Positions 24,001 to 45,000 of a stretch of DNA of 64,000 bases are shown here, one piece after another (the first letter of the stretch is position 1; the number at the start of each line of letters is the position of its first letter). This DNA is from Fervidicoccaceae archaeon (GTDB lineage: Archaea; Thermoproteota; Thermoprotei_A; Sulfolobales; Fervidicoccaceae). Position numbers: made by a program. The stretch lies in assembly GCA_038734945.1 (NCBI GenBank), contig JAVYOA010000002.1, positions 310,001 to 374,000 on the forward strand. The letters are read 5' to 3'.

Positions 24001-27000
24001 TTGGGCGAGGAACCTAGTTCACTGTCCAGTTCCCCAAATCTGATCTCCTTCCTTTGAAGTTGCGAGGAGTTTCTGAGAAGTTTAGAGCTGCATTCCAGGC
24101 TGGAGCTTGTTTAAGCTATGAGCACGTCTTGAAAGCTTTGCTCCCTCTTTATACAGCATATAGTTCTGGGATATGCTAATTTCCATAGCCCCTATTCGCT
24201 ATCTCTGTAGTAAAGAAGAGGCTTCCAGCTGTAATTTTCTTCAGCTAGATATTTTCTTATTATTGAGACAAATCCTAGAGCATATCTAGGTTCTTGAAAA
24301 AAGATCATTTTCCCCTTCTAGGCTTTACTTTGATGGTGAACTCAGAGACCTTTCCTCCCTTTCCTTCGCCTCTGTAGTAATTGAATATACCATTGCATTT
24401 TGGACACTGCATTCTTGCAACACTGTAGAACCTGAATTTCCAGCTCTTAAGCTGAGGAATTTCACCCTCATAGCCACAAAATGGGCACTTAACCATGAAT
24501 AGGTGCACCTTTCTATTATGTAATGATGCATCATAATAAATATACTTTCCTCCTTCAAACAGTTCTCTCTGCTCTAACCCTTTCAAGCTCAAAAGCATGT
24601 TTTTATTCAAAGTTTTTTATAGGAAAAATTGAGTAATTGATTTGTGCTTATTGAAGCAGACTAATTGGTGAAAGAATTGAAAGTCCTGATTATATCAGAT
24701 ATTCACGGAAACTATGATGCGTTGCGTGCTGTTTTGGAAGACGCAGGAAGCTGGGATCAGCTATGGGTTCTTGGAGATCTCGTTGACTATGGACCAGAAC
24801 CGGAAAAAATAGTAGATGAGATCAGGGATATGAGGCCTGAAGTCCTGCTTAGGGGAAATCACGATCATGCTGCTGCCTATAATGTGGACTGTGGATGCGG
24901 TATAAGGACTCATGACATAAGCGTCTATACAAGAGAGCACATCACCAGAAAGCTGCTATCCGAGGACCAATTAGAATGGTTGAAGAATCTTGATCTGAAG
25001 ATTGAGCGCAGCTTCTCTGGAGGCAAAATTATTCTTGTTCACGGCAGTCCGAGAAGCCCCCTCTATGATTACATGCTCCCCTCTCTTCCAAAGAACATCT
25101 TAATGGAAATGATTGGCAGCATTGCAGATGAGCCTTCTAGAAGCCTTGTAATTTTTGGGCACACGCATTTAGGAACAAACATGCTCCTGAAAAATTCTGT
25201 CTTGTTGAACCCTGGAAGCGTAGGCCAGCCAAGAGATGGGGATCCAAGAGCCTCCTATGCTATATTTGACTTGGAATCTATGGATTTCAGGATAATAAGA
25301 GTTAAATACGAAGTGGAGAAAGTAGTTGGAAAGCTAAGAGAGCTTGTCAAGGATGGAGCAGTAATGAAAAAGCTATCCTCTATTTACATGAATGGTAGGG
25401 TCTAATTGTAGTTAAAAAAAGATCTCTATGTTGTTCGATGCTTCTGCATGGAAGGATGGGCTATGCTTGTGCTGAACAGCCGAAGCTCCTTCTCAGTAGG
25501 AAAAATCTTTATTGTGATCCTTTTTCTGTCCGTCCTCAATATGCCTGTTCCAATCGGAAAGTTGGCGAGGAGCTCTGACTCAGCATCTGATAGCTTGTAG
25601 ATCTCCTTTATTAGATCTGTTCCTTGGGGCTCCTGCTTTAGAAGCAGGACTGTAGAGGATTGCTCCAATATTGCTCTTCCCTGTATCTTCAATGCAAGAT
25701 CCTCCGCCCTTTGAGTAATATATAGAAAAGCGATTCCGTGCTTTCTCCCCCTCCTAGCTATTCCTTCAAGGAGAGATGCTATGCTGGGAGTTTCCATGAG
25801 GAGCCATGCTTCATCTATGAATAGAACGCTCTTCTCTGCTCTGCTAAGAAGCTTGTTGTAAGTATATGGTGCTATCATTGCTGTTATCAAAAGCTTAATT
25901 CTCCTGCTCTTTATCCCCCTCATCCCAAAGATCACAGATCCTTTCAATTTGGGAGATGTTCCTTCGAAGACATTGGAGTCAGGTGGGATCCCTGCCCCCT
26001 GGAGATATCTGCGGATCTCTGGGCTCTCAGCTCTCTCTATGACCTCCATCAGATTTCCCGAGCTTCTTGCTCCCCTGAATAGCTCCTTTCTGAGGATCCC
26101 CTGAAGTCTCTCTGGAATTCCATATATTTCAGCTAGGATTTCGGATAGCTGTTCAATCTCTATTGCTCCTTCCTTCATCAGCTTTACAGGATCTAGACCG
26201 AGCTTCTGCGACTCCTGGATCTCCACTGCCTCGGCACCAAATACCTCAGCAATTCTAGAGTACTCGCTCTCTGGATCAATACCAACAATAGGGATAGTTG
26301 GATCCATGCTTCTGAGCCTGCTGAGATACAGCTTTGCTGCCATGCTCTTCCCTGATCCTGTGGTTCCCAATATCGCGAAGTTGTAATTGTGCTTGCTCCA
26401 GAGGTCAAGGAGAATTGGAGAGCCCGTTCCTGAAAAGCCAAGAAATACTCCTCCTGGGTCAAAAAGCTCCTCATCGATCAGTGGGAAAAGGGCTTTCATG
26501 CTCTCTCCGCTTGTATAGCTCCTCTCTGCACAGAGAAAGCCCAGACAGGTTTCAAAGTTGTAGAGCTCTTTCTGAATGGGGACGGCCTCAGCATCTAGGC
26601 CAAAGCCTCTGAGCAGTGCTCTGAGCCTCCTCTCTTTCTCGTTCAGGTCATCCATTCCTGGAGATGTAAGTATTAGAAGAAAGAAGAGTTCGATCAGAGA
26701 TGATCCTGACATTATACTTGAGGCCAGTTCCTCGAGAGCCATGGCTTCCCAAGTCTCTTCGGTTCCTCTTCCTCCATTTATTTTCCTTCTTCTTGCCATC
26801 TCTAAAAACGGCAGAGCTCTATCTTTTCCAATTTCTCTGAAGATCAGTGCTATCTCAGATGCTTCGCTGAGGAGAACATATGCAAAACCTTCAGGAAGGA
26901 GGGAAGAATATCTATAGACAGTGAGTACCCTGGCAAGCATTCCGTTTTCAAGAACCAATGTAAATGGGTTCCTCAGACCAATTGATCTAGGCCGATGAGG

Positions 27001-42000: not shown

Positions 42001-45000
42001 TCAGCGAGCTCATGCAGCCAGGGTCTCTTGCTCTATTCTCTGTTCCCAAGGCTGACCTTGGAGAGCACCTAGCTAAGCTCATTGCATCAGCTATAATTAT
42101 GAAGCTCTGGTTTCAAATTCTTGCGAGAGCGAGAAGTGATGAGAAGAGAACTCCCGTGTTCTTGGTTGTGGATGAATTCCAATTCATAGCTGATTTCCCG
42201 ATTATTGATACTATTCTATCGGAAGCTAGAAAGTTCGGGTTGCATTTAGTGATGGCCCACCAACACACTGGACAGATCTCGAGGGAACTATTTCAGTCAA
42301 TTATGACCAACTGCGCTGTGAAAGTCAGCTTCGCAGTCGAGGGGGAAGATGTAGCAAGACTCTCCACAATGGATGCTGCTTTTTCAGAGGCCATAGAGAG
42401 AAGCCTTGGCTCCCTCACTGTTGGAAAAGGCATTGTAAAAATAACTGGAAATTCTGGAGAGCAGCAGCCGCCTCCTGCAATCGTTACCTTTGATTATATT
42501 GAGAAATAGCGCTAGGAGAATTTTCGTTTCAGATTTTTCTATTGAACGTTAAAGAATGTCGTACTGCAGAAAAAGCAGTGCGTTTCATCTGAATGAGCAG
42601 ATTTGACCTCCCCGCACTAAAGGATGAGGCTTTCGATATGTAAAGAGCCATTTTTTAAAAAACAACAATTTCTTTGTTTATCCAACAATTTCCCTTATTT
42701 CCTTGATGATCGTGTTCTCAATATGTTGAGTCCAAAGCATTTCAGGTATATCTATAGCGAGGAAGAGCCAAGTTAGAAGGATCGCTTCTGCAGCTGCTAC
42801 CGCAATATTTTGGATCCACTTTCCTATTCCAATATGAATTGTGAAGTCATTTGGCTGCCCCGCTATTAGAATTGTGAATGCTCTATCTGCTGTTATAATA
42901 TCACGCAAGATGCCTTCCTTCTTTGCCTGGATCACTATTCCTGCAGGAACAGTGGCCACCTGTGTTTTGTATCCATCGCTCTCTAATTTCTGAGCAATCT
43001 GCTGAGCTAACTGATTCAGATCCTTATTTTTGCCTTGGAATCTCAGCACCTTTTCTGAAACCAAATTTAGCACCTCATTGATAAATAAAACAGCTCTTCT
43101 ATTGTTTAAACTTTTGCTTTTTTCAAAAACTTCAATTCTATTTCATTTTTTCCGATTTAGAAACTATATATATTCTCTCCAATCTTGGGAGTCTTTCTTC
43201 TTGGAATTGGTTTCTCAAAAGTGAATGCGGCGGCCGGGATTTGAACCCGGGATTGCCGGCGTGGCAGGCCGGCGTCCTAATCCAGGCTAGACGACCGCCG
43301 CTTCCAATAATTCTAGAATCACAAGAGCTTTTTAAATTAATTGCTTTTTCCGCAAAGACAATTAACTGCATTTGACCATGAACACACAGGAGGGATGACG
43401 GCATGAGCACTGGAAACTTCAACTACTATTGGAACTGGTTCGTAGAATGGATTGCTGATGGAGATGCCTCGCTCAGAGCTTCCTCAAGAGTATATGCATT
43501 TGAAAAAACTCCCTATCAAAGCGTTATGGTTGTAGAGCTTGTTTCCTTGGGAAAAACTCTGATAATTGATGGAAAAGTTCAGTCAAGCCTGTACGATGAG
43601 CACATATATCATGAGAGCCTTGTCCATCCACCTCTAATAACTCACGGCCTCCCCGAGAAAGTCCTAATTCTGGGAGGAGGAGAGGGAGCTACATTGAGGG
43701 AAGTTCTGAGGTACAGAACTGTCCGCGAGGTGCACATGGTTGATATAGACGAGAAAGTTGTTGAGTTCTCTAGAAACTTTCTGAAGGAGTGGCACAGAGG
43801 AGCGTTTGATGATCCAAGAACGAGAATCATAATAGCAGATGGAAGAAAGTTCGTTGAGGAAGCTGCTGCGAGGGGAGAGAAGTACGATGCTGTCATAATA
43901 GATCTGGTTGATCCATTGAGCGGAGGACCAGCAGTTAAGCTCTACACAAGAGAGTTCTATCATCTTATAGGAAAAATTCTTGAAGATGATGGAGTGATGG
44001 TCACACAGGCAACAAGCCCCATTCTATATCAGAGAATGTATGCTGTGATCCTCAATACTGTAGCTTCTGCTTTCTCAATAGCAAGACCTTATTTAACATA
44101 CATCAGAAGCTACAACGGTCCATGGGGATTTGTCTACGGTTCCAATAAAAAAGATCCTCTTGCTTTACAACCAGAGGAAATTAACAAGAGAATTTCCTCA
44201 CTGCTAAGCACCCCCAGCGAATTGAAATTCTACGACGGAGAAACCCATGAAGCTCTATTCAAGATAACAAAGAACATCAGAGATGGTCTAAAAAGCTGGA
44301 GAGAAGTTTCAACTGATGAATCCCCAAAGTACATTGACATCTAGTTTTTTGATGACAAAAATTCTTGGTTTTTTAGCAACCTTCCCCTGCTGTTTATTTT
44401 TTATAATGATTTAAGCTAATATTCCGTCGAAATCAATATAAAGCCTTCAACTTCTATAATATTAAATGGACTCTCCGGGAGCTCAGAGGCTCGCCGCGGC
44501 CTTAGCCCGGCGGCACAGCCGCAACATGGAGCGATTTGCTCCTAGAATGAGCGGGCTGTCTCCGGCTGCGGGAAAACTTCTGCCTCTGGGCGAGTACCGG
44601 GGACAGCAAAAATCTTATAAGCCAATTAGAATAATTCGAGTAATCGCAATCAAGATGACGGCTCGAGGAGACCCCGCAGGTGCGGGGAAAACTCGGGTCC
44701 GAGATAGGCTGCGCGAGAATCCCCAAAATCAGGTTGGGGGTGGCGCAGAATTCCACCAAGGGATTCATCCCCCCAACCTTGCGGCCGAACTCCGGTTGAT
44801 CCTGCCGGACCCGACCGCTATCGGGGTGGCGCTAAGCCATGGGAGTCGCACATCCCACCGCTGTGGGGTGTGGCGAACGGCTGAGTAACGCGTGGCTAAC
44901 CTACCCTCGGGACGGGAACAACTCCGGGAAACTGGAGCTGATTCCCGATAGGTGGGGAGTCCTGGAACGGTTCTCCACCGAAAGGGACTAGAAGGGGCTA

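Follow-up and report, generated by a model that had tools for sequence, protein, structure and literature searches.

In the genome of a Fervidicoccaceae archaeon, a block at positions 25426–42509 of the window (the 64,000-nt stretch of contig JAVYOA010000002.1 that was analysed) interleaves a type IV secretion system (T4SS)-type gene set with type IV pilus (T4P) genes, and an IS607-like element lies inside it. We lean towards reading the block as a chromosomal, non-self-mobile DNA-transfer apparatus of the Ced/Ted kind, with pNOB8-type ancestry, that has merged with a dedicated T4P locus. This pairing of T4SS and T4P recurs in related archaea, and its role is probably the exchange of DNA between cells, where both DNA as the substrate and the direction of transfer are presumed.

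Gene content of the block

All of the genes named in an earlier note on this DNA were found at their places (Table 1). The T4SS set consists of a VirB4-like ATPase (g615), a polytopic membrane protein in the VirB6 position (g616), a VirD4/HerA-like ATPase (g629) and a two-helix protein (g625). The T4P set consists of four pilin-like genes with class-III signals, a FlaI-type ATPase (g627) and a membrane partner with eight hydrophobic segments (g628). The earlier note counted three pilin-like proteins, g622, g623 and g626; these three stand, but the start of g624 is class-III-like as well. The genes g622 to g629 all run in one direction, and neighbours overlap or are separated by no more than 59 nt; because of this arrangement the two parts are probably co-transcribed and made together.

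Table 1. Features of the block and its right-hand neighbour
Feature	Description	Position	Strand	Basis
g615	VirB4/TrbE-like ATPase, 619 aa	25426..27285	-	Pfam, PDB, pNOB8 homology
g616	polytopic, VirB6/CedA/TedA position, 664 aa	27329..29323	-	8 hydrophobic segments
orf595	soluble protein	29924..31711	+	accompanies pilus module; no Pfam match
IS607-like insertion	serine recombinase TnpA + TnpB	31925..33717	+	Pfam, three-frame reading
orf181	uncertain small ORF	33685..34230	-	overlaps IS end and g622 start
g622	pilin-like, 124 aa	34160..34534	+	N-terminal hydrophobic helix after MAKRS
g623	pilin-like, 144 aa	34534..34968	+	class-III-like N-terminus MRTRA/LAEAMAIVLIAIV
g624	large pilin-like or adhesin-like, 601 aa	34958..36763	+	class-III-like N-terminus MNHRG/IAEGIGVILLAL
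g625	VirB2-like (T4SS) pilin candidate, 93 aa	36814..37095	+	two hydrophobic helices
g626	pilin-like, 153 aa	37155..37616	+	N-terminus MRG/MSSELIVMISVVLIAMV
g627	FlaI/PilB-type secretion ATPase, 501 aa	37561..39066	+	Pfam T2SSE 7.4e-23
g628	TadC/FlaJ-like platform candidate, 490 aa	39020..40492	+	8 hydrophobic segments, position, hhalign
g629	VirD4/TraG/HerA-like ATPase, 661 aa	40524..42509	+	Pfam, PDB, pNOB8 homology
orf131	between g629 and tRNA, membership uncertain	42678..43073	-	weak Pfam POTRA_2, 0.003
tRNA-Gly(GCC)	right-hand neighbour of block	43226..43301	-	ARAGORN, Rfam

The VirB4-like g615 matched Pfam AAA_10 (9e-13), DUF87 (6e-11) and P-loop_TraG (1e-9), the PDB VirB4 structure 4ag5 (E 3.7e-20) and the DUF87 protein of pNOB8 (34.4% identity, 98% of length covered). 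For g629, the Pfam matches were DUF87 (4.5e-14), TrwB_AAD_bind (1.2e-13), T4SS-DNA_transf (4.8e-8) and TraG-D_C (1e-7), the PDB matches were HerA (1.8e-6) and TrwB (2.3e-4), and the identity to pNOB8 CDS 6801-9878 was 31% over 642 aa. The Pfam scan gave no match for g616, in which an N-terminal pilin-like hairpin is followed by a PKD-like domain and more membrane segments; positions 145–222 of its family profile (alignment A4) matched PKD-like domains weakly (E 0.006), and pNOB8 CDS 30749-32563 was 25% identical over 179 aa (E 1.6e-7). Weak similarity and position suggest that g616 may be a VirB6 counterpart. Together with a small pNOB8 ORF that is 31% identical to g625 over 72 aa, these matches give all four T4SS parts a pNOB8 homologue, including g629, which had been missing from the three (g615, g616 and g625) reported there before, and they support placing the secretion core in the pNOB8 family. 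No homologue of the pilus parts was found on pNOB8, in agreement with the earlier reading.

Members of the g625 family (alignment A3) have a signal-like start, two helices, a charged loop and a conserved TVTPxPPPG-type motif, with PPP in seven of the eight members and APP in one. Matches to Pfam T4SS_pilin were sub-threshold in 5/8 members and in the pNOB8 ORF (best 22.8 bits, cut-off 26.6), and g625 itself had none. The AlphaFold model of g625 is a helical hairpin (pLDDT 82), and the protein resembles residues 8–67 of the g616 N-terminus (30% over 61 aa; pairwise E 2e-5, computed without composition correction). According to excerpts of Beltran 2023 (PMC9905601), the same pilin/N-terminus relation links CedA1 with CedA and VirB2 with VirB6. 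As in TedC, a cleavable signal is apparent in the family, but it showed no detectable sequence similarity to the CedA1 and TedC chains of known structure, which agrees with the earlier caveat that g625 lacked a significant PDB match to VirB2, CedA1 or TedC. By its sequence features the family resembles secreted T4SS pilins with two helices; among candidates for the VirB2-like subunit, g625, as proposed in the earlier note, is the best. Its homologue in G017 adjoins VirD4 and VirB4, with the pilus genes located elsewhere.

In g622, g623 and g626, a single N-terminal hydrophobic helix is preceded by a short basic stretch. Homologues of g622 adjoin VirB4 in G004 and G001, both of which also carry g624 homologues (29–34%); a g623 homologue is present in G004, and a 142-aa ORF between the g622 and g624 homologues of G001 was grouped with g623 by ORF clustering. 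A [KR][GA]-[LIV]SE start lies near the N-terminus in six of the nine g626 homologue ORFs listed, the other three calls beginning too far upstream for the motif to show, and in all of the compared loci g626 homologues are directly upstream of the FlaI gene. Orthologues of g627 are 50–63% identical within the VirB4-bearing clade. The g628 gene starts before g627 ends, and in all loci compared it comes after the FlaI gene. Pfam T2SSF did not match g628; of three T2SSF proteins from this genome, hhalign matched two to it, in the same region (E 2.8e-4 and 9.2e-4); this weak similarity and the gene position make g628 a probable TadC/FlaJ-like platform protein. No hydrophobic segment was found in orf595. 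The orf181 product had no match in the Pfam scan, and one weak homologue (31% over 65 aa, E 4e-6) adjoins the VirB6-position gene of G084. Homologues of orf131 were absent from the compared loci.

The landing of a resolvase and TnpB element inside the block was borne out by Pfam Resolvase (5.7e-6) and Cas12f1-like_TNB (1e-19) matches. Three-frame reading showed a frameshift that separates the HTH from the catalytic part of TnpA, and an intact TnpB. The element is single-copy in the assembly; metagenome contigs break at about 31980 and 33645, and the depth there is 15–28 times that of the flanks.

The secretion and pilus modules co-evolve

We counted VirB4 at an identity of at least 38% in 151 genomes of the order. 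It was present in 14, all of which have a FlaI orthologue, and FlaI was at most 12 kb from VirB4 or VirD4 in 10 of these. The remaining four were G017, where the modules are unlinked (117 kb apart), and three genomes with the genes on separate contigs. The modules were also linked in two MAGs from outside the sample, G151 and G155, so that the linkage, previously seen in two or three of six regions, is far more widespread. The FlaI tree contains a 15-row clade (SH-aLRT 99) in which 13 rows come from VirB4-bearing genomes, and the VirB4 tree likewise contains a 15-row clade (SH-aLRT 99), whose sub-groups correspond; the two clades have 11 genomes in common. The two modules co-evolve, and the T4P genes are tied to the T4SS core as the earlier note held.

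Homologues of orf595 occur in 19 of the 151 genomes and lie about 1–10 kb from the FlaI orthologue in 13 (G113, G112, G084, G076, G047, G032, G017, G031, G100, G093, G052, G078 and G070). The two genes are 38 kb apart in G004 and on different contigs in G144, and G006, which retains orf595 fragments only, G065 and G095 showed no FlaI match at E <= 1e-60. G002 was ruled out as an independent carrier of pilus parts without VirB4 because its contig matches G004 at the DNA level with 98% identity; the two belong to different genera, and the common segment reflects either recent transfer or mis-binning.

Resident system or mobile element

In the earlier note the block was read as a conjugative element of the pNOB8 family that has integrated and carries its own type IV pilus; such an element could be active or recently immobilised. 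We regard this as unlikely, although the pNOB8 homology of all four core parts fits it and the block adjoins tRNA-Gly in a variable stretch (at the corresponding place the congener G002 has nothing equivalent to 20.8–43.2 kb). The distribution is patchy, with the core in two of seven other genomes of the window's own family. Furthermore, in both gene trees genus g25 of family f3 falls with f1, f5 and f11 and not with the remaining genera of f3, and G084 is separate from the rest of g25 in each; given this conflict with taxonomy, the composite has moved between lineages. The lineages that are sister to the VirB4 clade are either mobile or foreign, namely pNOB8, Archaeoglobus and, in another genus, a contig of G061 that bears a related core with an integrase and a primase. 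T4P parts are also carried by thaumarchaeal integrative and conjugative elements (ICEs), according to excerpts of PMC6563490.

Against this reading, the block is without mobile-element hallmarks. A Pfam scan of 19 larger ORFs (22880–44344) found no integrase in the block and its flanks, and the only tyrosine-recombinase match in the genome is on contig C9, not the block's contig; no att repeat or partial tRNA-Gly copy marking a border was found elsewhere in the window. The earlier note likewise had no integrase or att repeat. Among the larger ORFs of the block, Pfam revealed machinery only, with no replication, partition, regulatory or cargo genes, whereas pNOB8 has an integrase, ParA/ParB, regulators and many plasmid ORFs; conversely, the T4P operon is found in the block and not on pNOB8. 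The GC content equals that of the surroundings. The 67 flank ORFs of four relatives are housekeeping genes (MCM, RFC, ABCE1, thermosome, KdpAB and similar) and include no integrase, Par or Rep protein. All five sampled species of genus g25 and all three of genus g15 have the core, and in G017 the parts are scattered across the genome; Ced genes are scattered over the genome in Sulfolobus. In metagenome contigs the depth was uniform across the block and flanks, with no reliable joint skipping the block, although contigs cannot prove the absence of one.

Known systems and proposed working

Ced (Sulfolobales/Desulfurococcales) and Ted (Thermoproteales) are domesticated T4SS (Beltran 2023; van Wolferen-group, Shen-group 2025). 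Like the block, they combine, on the chromosome, a VirB4-like ATPase, a polytopic protein in the VirB6 position, a second ATPase of HerA/VirD4 type (CedD/TedD in these systems) and a VirB2-like two-helix pilin similar to the N-terminal part of the polytopic protein, with no mobile-element genes. Unlike them, the block has no ParA/VirC1-like or Rad50 gene, and similarity to plasmid proteins can be recognised in its parts, whereas this reportedly does not hold between Ced and Ted. The Ups pili likewise comprise a small T4P operon (pilins, FlaI-type ATPase, platform and one large accessory protein) with a functional tie to a T4SS-like DNA-exchange system, but in the block the tie is physical as well. 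To our knowledge, Ups genes have been reported in Sulfolobales only, and no orf595 homologue was detectable in 18 sampled genomes of family f13 (presumed Sulfolobaceae). Excerpts of PMC11823120 describe ups and ced as separate loci in Sulfolobales, in contrast to the interleaved operon of the block, and state that Thermoproteales lack Ups.

In the thaumarchaeal ICEs (Abby 2018; Krupovic 2019), VirB4, VirD4, VirB6 and VirB2-like genes share one conjugation module with TadC, FlaI and pilins, but the elements are described in the parts available (PMC6563490) as att-flanked, inserted in tRNA genes, mostly integrase-bearing and equipped with TFIIB, ParB, replication genes and cargo, which the block lacks; their VirB4 is only 23–33% identical to that of the window. 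The novelty claimed in the earlier note, by which archaeal conjugative plasmids are said to encode no recognisable pilus protein, is outdated, since excerpts of Abby 2018 (PMC5797428) and Beltran 2023 (PMC9905601) already give VirB2-like archaeal pilins and those of Krupovic 2019 (PMC6563490) TadC, FlaI, prepilin peptidase and pilins on the ICEs.

For the Ced/Ted-like apparatus that we favour, a pilus would be built by the g627 ATPase and the g628 platform from the pilins g622, g623, g624 and g626, with orf595 as an accessory, and by analogy with Ups pili in Sulfolobales it may bring cells into contact. On the model of Ced and Ted, g615, g616, g625 and g629 would form the conduit through which DNA passes and the motor that drives it.

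It is rather improbable that the genes instead encode one hybrid apparatus with one filament, in which the FlaI-type ATPase is a VirB11 equivalent and the pilins are pseudopilins. The position of g625 among the pilin genes of the window would suit such an apparatus, and so would distant archaeal clusters (Archaeoglobi-type contigs L045 and L047, Nitrosopumilaceae contig L057) that have a T2SSE-family ATPase 1–2 kb from VirB4 and show no platform gene; in L045 and L047, the interval from VirB4 to VirD4 contains ORFs of Pilin_N or class-III-like type. In bacteria, the IncI (R64) and PAPI-1/ICEclc families encode T4P with VirB4/VirD4-dependent DNA transfer, for which the pilus is needed or helpful (excerpts of PMC12857230), but these are diderm systems on mobile elements. 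On the other hand, the pilus module (pilin, FlaI, platform and orf595) occurs without VirB4 in G032 and also, as part of a sister clade, in numerous genomes from families f3 and f7; it is distant from the core in G017; and neither pNOB8 nor the G061 element needs it in order to function, or at any rate to exist.

That the apparatus moves no DNA and is an adhesion, biofilm or protein-secretion system reusing T4SS ATPases is very improbable. Points in its favour are that g616 has a PKD-like outer domain, that the large pilin-like g624 could be an adhesin and that the Pfam scan of the block's larger ORFs turned up no gene for a relaxase, a nuclease or recombination. However, recognisable relaxases are generally missing from archaeal systems according to excerpts of PMC9905601 and PMC6563490, the block encodes a coupling ATPase of the VirD4/TraG type that matches the TrwB DNA-binding domain and TraG-D_C, and the closest characterised relatives (pNOB8 plasmids, pT33-3 and Ced) all move DNA.

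Gene content and setting of the block

The block lies on contig C2 of an archaeal genome of 1.34 Mb in 9 contigs, assembled from hot-spring metagenomes, and the closest named relatives of its genes are found in Desulfurococcaceae MAGs and Zestosphaera-type organisms. The GC content of the window is about 44%, with one GC-rich rRNA operon. Every gene that the earlier note had listed was recovered as an ORF and by its Pfam and PDB matches and hydropathy. The plus strand carries g622 to g629, each overlapping its neighbours or separated from them by at most 59 nt, and g616 and g615 form a second gene pair that is divergent from this array. 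Elsewhere in the window, a tRNA match in Rfam that was not called by ARAGORN is probably an intron-bearing tRNA.

Features of the block and its surroundings in window coordinates
Feature	Position	Strand	Description
tRNA match	5811-5932		122 nt, Rfam
znr101	24305-24610		small zinc-ribbon gene, flank
g615	25426-27285	-	VirB4-like; PDB 4ag5, E 3.7e-20
g616	27329-29323	-	VirB6-position protein; 8 hydrophobic segments
IS607-like element	about 31925-33717
g622, g623, g624, g626		+	pilus-type; single N-terminal hydrophobic helix each, preceded by a short basic stretch
g625	36814-37095	+	93 aa, two helices
g627		+	pilus-type; Pfam T2SSE, E 7.4e-23
g628		+	pilus-type; 8 hydrophobic segments
g629	40524-42509	+	Pfam DUF87, TrwB_AAD_bind, T4SS-DNA_transf, TraG-D_C
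Spermidine synthase gene	43403-44344		flank
rRNA operon	44789-49542		GC-rich

Among the pilus-type genes, g627 encodes a FlaI/PilB-type ATPase by its T2SSE match, which is above the Pfam cut-off. The Pfam Pilin_N model did not match the pilin-like proteins of the block; direct inspection of these sequences and their homologues showed class III signals, in which a run of ~20 hydrophobic residues comes after a [KR][GAS] site, and six of the nine listed g626 homologues start with [KR][GA]-[LIV]SE, which is typical of archaeal class III signals. We treated g628 as a probable platform protein of the TadC/FlaJ/PilC type. Pfam T2SSF gave no match to g628 itself and one match among eight homologues (E 0.07), and hhalign against the three T2SSF proteins of the same genome returned E-values of 2.8e-4, 9.2e-4 and 0.13, the best two over the same region; the structural model of g628 (pLDDT 75) had non-specific fold matches by Foldseek and VIA-align. 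The order of pilin, FlaI and platform genes was constant in every compared locus, and orf595, which encodes a soluble protein, accompanied the FlaI gene in most genomes possessing both, including genomes without VirB4. orf595 was considered as a relative of UpsX and rejected, as no match was found in the 18 genomes of family f13 with which it was compared. One Peptidase_A24 match for a prepilin peptidase was found in the genome, outside the window (C2:59121-59441).

Between orf595 and g622 lies an IS607-like element, assigned to this family by a serine recombinase with an N-terminal HTH followed by TnpB. Its TnpA, in which a frameshift separates the HTH part from the catalytic part, is the sole recombinase within the block. 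In three metagenome runs the element had 15-28 times the depth of its flanks and contigs broke at its ends, despite its being present as a single copy in the assembly; either the family is abundant in other community members or copies were collapsed in the assembly.

The block's two flanking genes, for a small zinc-ribbon protein and for spermidine synthase, also border the corresponding gene set in G112, a genome of another family; the position is either an old chromosomal one that was retained or a site used more than once. The zinc-ribbon gene znr101 adjoins the cluster in the genome under study (G000), in G112, G076 and G144, and at loci L038 and L044 (G155). It was rejected as a part of the block, being widespread (31 of 151 genomes) and often distant from the cluster.

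Secretion genes and the candidate pilin g625

The block proteins were compared by tblastn with the whole 41-kb Sulfolobales conjugative plasmid pNOB8, which is a small search space, and homologues were found for all four secretion parts. g615 was 34% identical over 620 aa to its pNOB8 homologue (E 6e-112), and against the plasmid collection it reached 34.4% identity with 98% of its length covered (E 1e-99); VirB4 at 31% was also present on a 103-kb Thermococcus plasmid. g629 matched a 1025-aa DUF87 protein (CDS 6801-9878; 31% over 642 aa, E 2e-89) and g616 a 604-aa hypothetical protein (CDS 30749-32563; 25% over 179 aa, E 1.6e-7). The homologue of g625 was a 106-aa hypothetical protein (CDS 29626-29946; 31% over 72 aa, E 1e-6 in the small search space), whose ORF adjoins that of the g616 homologue in the plasmid. 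Against the whole plasmid collection g625 had chance actinobacterial matches only, its pNOB8 homologue being visible only in the small search. The whole-plasmid search found no homologue of the pilus genes or of orf595 on pNOB8. The earlier note's assignment of the secretion core to the pNOB8 family was thus borne out for VirB4, VirD4, the polytopic protein and the small two-helix ORF.

That note had also proposed g625 as the missing VirB2-like subunit. We took g625 homologues from 10 loci and aligned eight of them. Members of the family have a hydrophobic, signal-peptide-like start, clearest in G061 (MKRGLKALATALSLALIARAEA|Q), a conserved motif (I/V)T(V/I)TPxPPPG, and two hydrophobic helices with a charged loop GDxExGKK. 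The Pfam T4SS_pilin model (PF18895; VirB2/TrbC class) matched five of the eight family members and the pNOB8 ORF over nearly its full length, with E-values of 9.8e-5 to 0.13 and scores that all fell short of the curated threshold of 26.6 bits, and did not match g625 itself; the ESM Atlas listed TrbC and T4SS_pilin clusters at 0.87, values that serve as leads only. Within the window, g625 resembles the N-terminus of g616 (30% over 61 aa, pairwise E 2e-5, uncorrected for composition), and three further cross-genome matches were found between the two families. The same relation between a pilin and the N-terminus of a polytopic protein has been described for CedA1/CedA and VirB2/VirB6 (Beltran 2023, PMC9905601). 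We assigned g625 to the secretion module because in G017 a g625-like gene sits between VirD4 and VirB4, with the pilus genes 117 kb distant.

Structural comparison was neutral. The AlphaFold model of g625 is a helical hairpin (pLDDT 82), for which Foldseek and VIA-align returned generic helical hairpins only (best Z 8.5), neither for nor against VirB2, CedA1 or TedC. The structures 8DFU, 8DFT and 8EXH are stated to be deposited (microLife 2025, PMC11823120), and a search of all PDB sequences with the g625-family profile returned no CedA1, TedC or VirB2 chain at E up to 10 and one chance match (E 2.1). The g616-family profile had weak PKD-like matches alone among solved structures, and no VirB6. 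The PKD-like outer domain of g616, at about residues 145-222, contains a VDWGDG motif (PDB profile E 0.006) and separates the pilin-like hairpins from the C-terminal membrane bundle; in the homologue at locus L045, of an uncultured archaeon, Pfam detected PKD at 2e-4. Only position, topology and the pilin-like N-terminus point to a VirB6-like identity of g616.

Linkage and joint history of the two modules

We searched 151 genomes of the order, including the one under study, and found VirB4 (g615, E <= 1e-20) in 27, FlaI (g627, E <= 1e-60) in 42, VirD4 (g629, E <= 1e-30) in 19 and orf595 (E <= 1e-3) in 19. VirB4 at 38% identity or more was present in 14 genomes, every one of which had a FlaI orthologue. 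The linkage of pilus and secretion genes that the earlier note had reported was confirmed, with FlaI at most 12 kb from VirB4 or VirD4 in 10 of the 14 (G000, G004, G113, G112, G084, G037, G047, G031, G076 and G144) and the linked composite of both gene sets also present in two MAGs outside this sample (G151 and G155). In the remaining genomes, FlaI was 117 kb from the secretion core (G017) or on a separate contig from VirB4 (G001, G061 and G100); the pilin genes of G001 adjoin VirB4. The secretion genes typically bracket the pilus genes, and the order in G112 is VirB4, pilin, orf595, pilin, FlaI, platform, g625-like gene, VirD4 and g616-like gene.

Individual loci carry additional genes. In G004, KdpA and KdpB potassium-pump genes (L015:11504-15221) separate the FlaI half from the pilin/VirB4 half, and the composite therefore tolerates unrelated inserts. 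In G084, a PLD-family nuclease-like gene is directly upstream of VirD4 (L028:2079-2765) and a TFIIB zinc-ribbon protein is encoded near the VirB6-position gene (L028:10704-11363); these are possible DNA-processing and regulatory partners, with no counterparts seen in the window.

Trees of FlaI and VirB4 were built by the same quick method with SH-aLRT as the only support. The FlaI tree (33 rows, omitting G031, in which two contigs each hold part of the gene, and the 12 weakest matches) contained a 15-row clade with support 99, made up of genus g15 (family f11), genus g25 (family f3), two genomes of family f5, and family f1, to which the genome under study belongs; other genera of f3 and family f7 fell outside. 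Thirteen of the 15 rows came from VirB4-bearing genomes, the exceptions being G032 and a doubtful contig of G002. The VirB4 tree (29 rows) omitted the VirB4 matches of G038, G048, G049, G053, G067, G076, G100, G110, G117, G126 and G144, as well as all bacterial loci and those of Nitrosopumilus type (L052-L057), and it also contained a 15-row clade with support 99, the sub-groups of which matched those of the FlaI tree, with G084 apart from the rest of g25. The two clades have 11 genomes in common, and their agreement indicates that the pilus and secretion modules were inherited or moved together. Successive sisters of the VirB4 clade were an Archaeoglobus MAG, the G061 element, an Archaeoglobi trio, and pNOB8 with a genome of f13.

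Integrated element or chromosomal exchange system

The earlier note had read the block as an integrated conjugative element. Mobility of some kind is suggested by the patchy presence in family f1, by gene trees at odds with taxonomy, by a near-identical segment in G002 and G004 described below, and by the lack of a counterpart of window 20.8-43.2 kb at the corresponding place in G002, where argH, argG, tRNA-Gly and three other genes are found and there is no clean empty site. Against an integrated element, no Phage_integrase match was found by Pfam among the larger ORFs of 22880-44344, and the only tyrosine recombinase match in the whole genome was at C9:274735. A blastn-short search of tRNA-Gly and its flanks against the window for att repeats recovered nothing beyond the T-arms of other tRNAs and chance matches of at most 15 nt. 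No replication, partition or cargo genes were detected by Pfam in the block ORFs, and the composition of the block is that of its surroundings. pNOB8, in contrast, has an integrase, ParA and ParB. The flanks in G004, G037, G084 and G112 encode MCM, RFC, ThiI, ABCE1, thermosome, KdpAB, Cmr2/Csx1 and similar proteins, with no integrase, Par or Rep protein among the 67 scanned of 83 ORFs of at least 90 aa (of the 16 dropped, 13 were far from the cluster and three were short). The core was present in all five sampled g25 species and all three g15 species. Metagenome contigs from two studies, which cannot show absence, had even depth over the block and its flanks and no reliable skipping joint. Two apparent joints from the IS to the tRNA region were discarded, since their sides were only 20-21 nt and each was seen in a single contig. 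In the roughly 3% of one metatranscriptome run (X14) that was covered, no reads fell on the block, too small a share to bear on its expression.

A related core with a different setting was found in G061 on a 41-kb contig (C10; loci L152, L033 and L153), with VirD4 at 52%, VirB4 at 40% and a g625-like pilin. This contig also carries two tyrosine integrases, a prim-pol/PriX protein, PBP2, a 646-aa DprA-like protein and an Eco57I-type methylase, with no pilus gene among the 30 of 33 ORFs scanned, and is ICE-like or plasmid-like. Two genomes with near-identical FlaI, G052 and G078, do not carry this core. A 19-kb contig binned with G002 (C32, L023) shares 98% DNA identity with the part of G004 that holds its pilus genes and g625 homologue (L015/L016), with two indels of 5.7 and 5.9 kb, whereas housekeeping DNA of these two genomes of different genera is 67-73% identical; the segment reflects either mis-binning or very recent transfer, and G002 was therefore rejected as a case of a pilus without a T4SS.

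We lean towards reading the block as a chromosomal DNA-exchange system resembling Ced and Ted, of pNOB8 ancestry and with a built-in contact pilus. The earlier interpretation held for gene content, pNOB8 ancestry and pilus linkage, and was not supported for the integrated element. Ced and Ted have been defined as domesticated T4SS with VirB2-like pilins (Beltran 2023, PMC9905601), and the block similarly is a chromosomal set of VirB4-like, VirB6-like and VirB2-like genes without mobile-element genes; unlike Ted, it has no ParA/VirC1-like or Rad50 genes by Pfam among its ORFs. A bolder, tentative proposition would place the block in a third lineage of archaeal T4SS maintained on the chromosome, next to Ced and Ted, which is still recognisably related to pNOB8 in sequence and would have fused with its contact pilus into one co-evolving 'Ups-plus-Ced in one locus' unit. 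In this unit the VirB2-like pilin gene would be transcribed inside the type IV pilus operon, and the unit would appear to spread between families without an integrase. Under this proposition, such transcription suggests that production of the two filaments, or even their assembly, may be coupled, and the spread would possibly be driven by the unit's own transfer of chromosomal DNA.

Most of what is understood about DNA exchange in archaea comes from Sulfolobales. There, the aggregation pilus Ups and the Ced import machine have separate loci, which is why genetic experiments were needed to establish that the two are functionally connected. The block intersperses genes for both kinds of machine in a single array, and the two have a common evolutionary history across at least four families; genomes thereby offer independent evidence that, as a general rule, contact pili operate together with T4SS-like conduits. 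In sequence, the block also bridges plasmid conjugation genes (pNOB8) and chromosomal systems. It brings out a candidate family of VirB2-like pilins with probable Sec signals that includes the pNOB8 ORF, and it directs the search for both filaments to cultivable relatives among the Desulfurococcaceae.

VirB4 has been reported in Fervidicoccales, Thermoproteales and Desulfurococcus with a distribution complementary to CedB/CedD (mLife 2025, PMC11868833), and ups genes as confined to Sulfolobales, with Ups-less organisms possibly pairing via Ced/Ted pili (microLife 2025, PMC11823120). Type IV pilus loci of Desulfurococcales were described with 3-4 extra components of untraceable origin (Makarova 2016, PMC4858521), in a main text without occurrence of VirB4, VirD4 or 'conjugat'. 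A link of type IV pili with archaeal VirB4/VirD4 modules and archaeal VirB2-like pilins are already in print, as conjugation modules of thaumarchaeal ICEs have TadC, FlaI, PilT, a prepilin peptidase and pilins as conserved parts (Krupovic 2019, PMC6563490), a VirB2-like protein was annotated on one such ICE (Abby 2018, PMC5797428), and such pilins were reported for Ced and Ted (Beltran 2023). In the literature, supplementary tables aside, we found no description of this chromosomal, integrase-free composite of type IV pilus and T4SS genes in Desulfurococcaceae-type archaea, of its co-evolution, or of the pilin family that it has in common with pNOB8.

Related arrangements were observed beyond the main clades. 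L045 and L047 (an Archaeoglobi MAG) share the order VirB6-position gene, VirB4, TFIIB-like zinc-ribbon, archaeal pilin (Pilin_N match of 8e-8 in L047), T2SSE ATPase, pilin-like ORF and VirD4, of which the last two, like the VirB6-position protein with its PKD domain, were seen in L045 only, L047 ending before the last two; no platform gene was seen in either cluster. T4P-type parts are therefore embedded in this T4SS family in another phylum too. In G089 (L034, family f13), a pNOB8-like region has its VirB4 and VirB6-position genes flanked by two inverted copies of a seven-gene set (clusters c27-c33).
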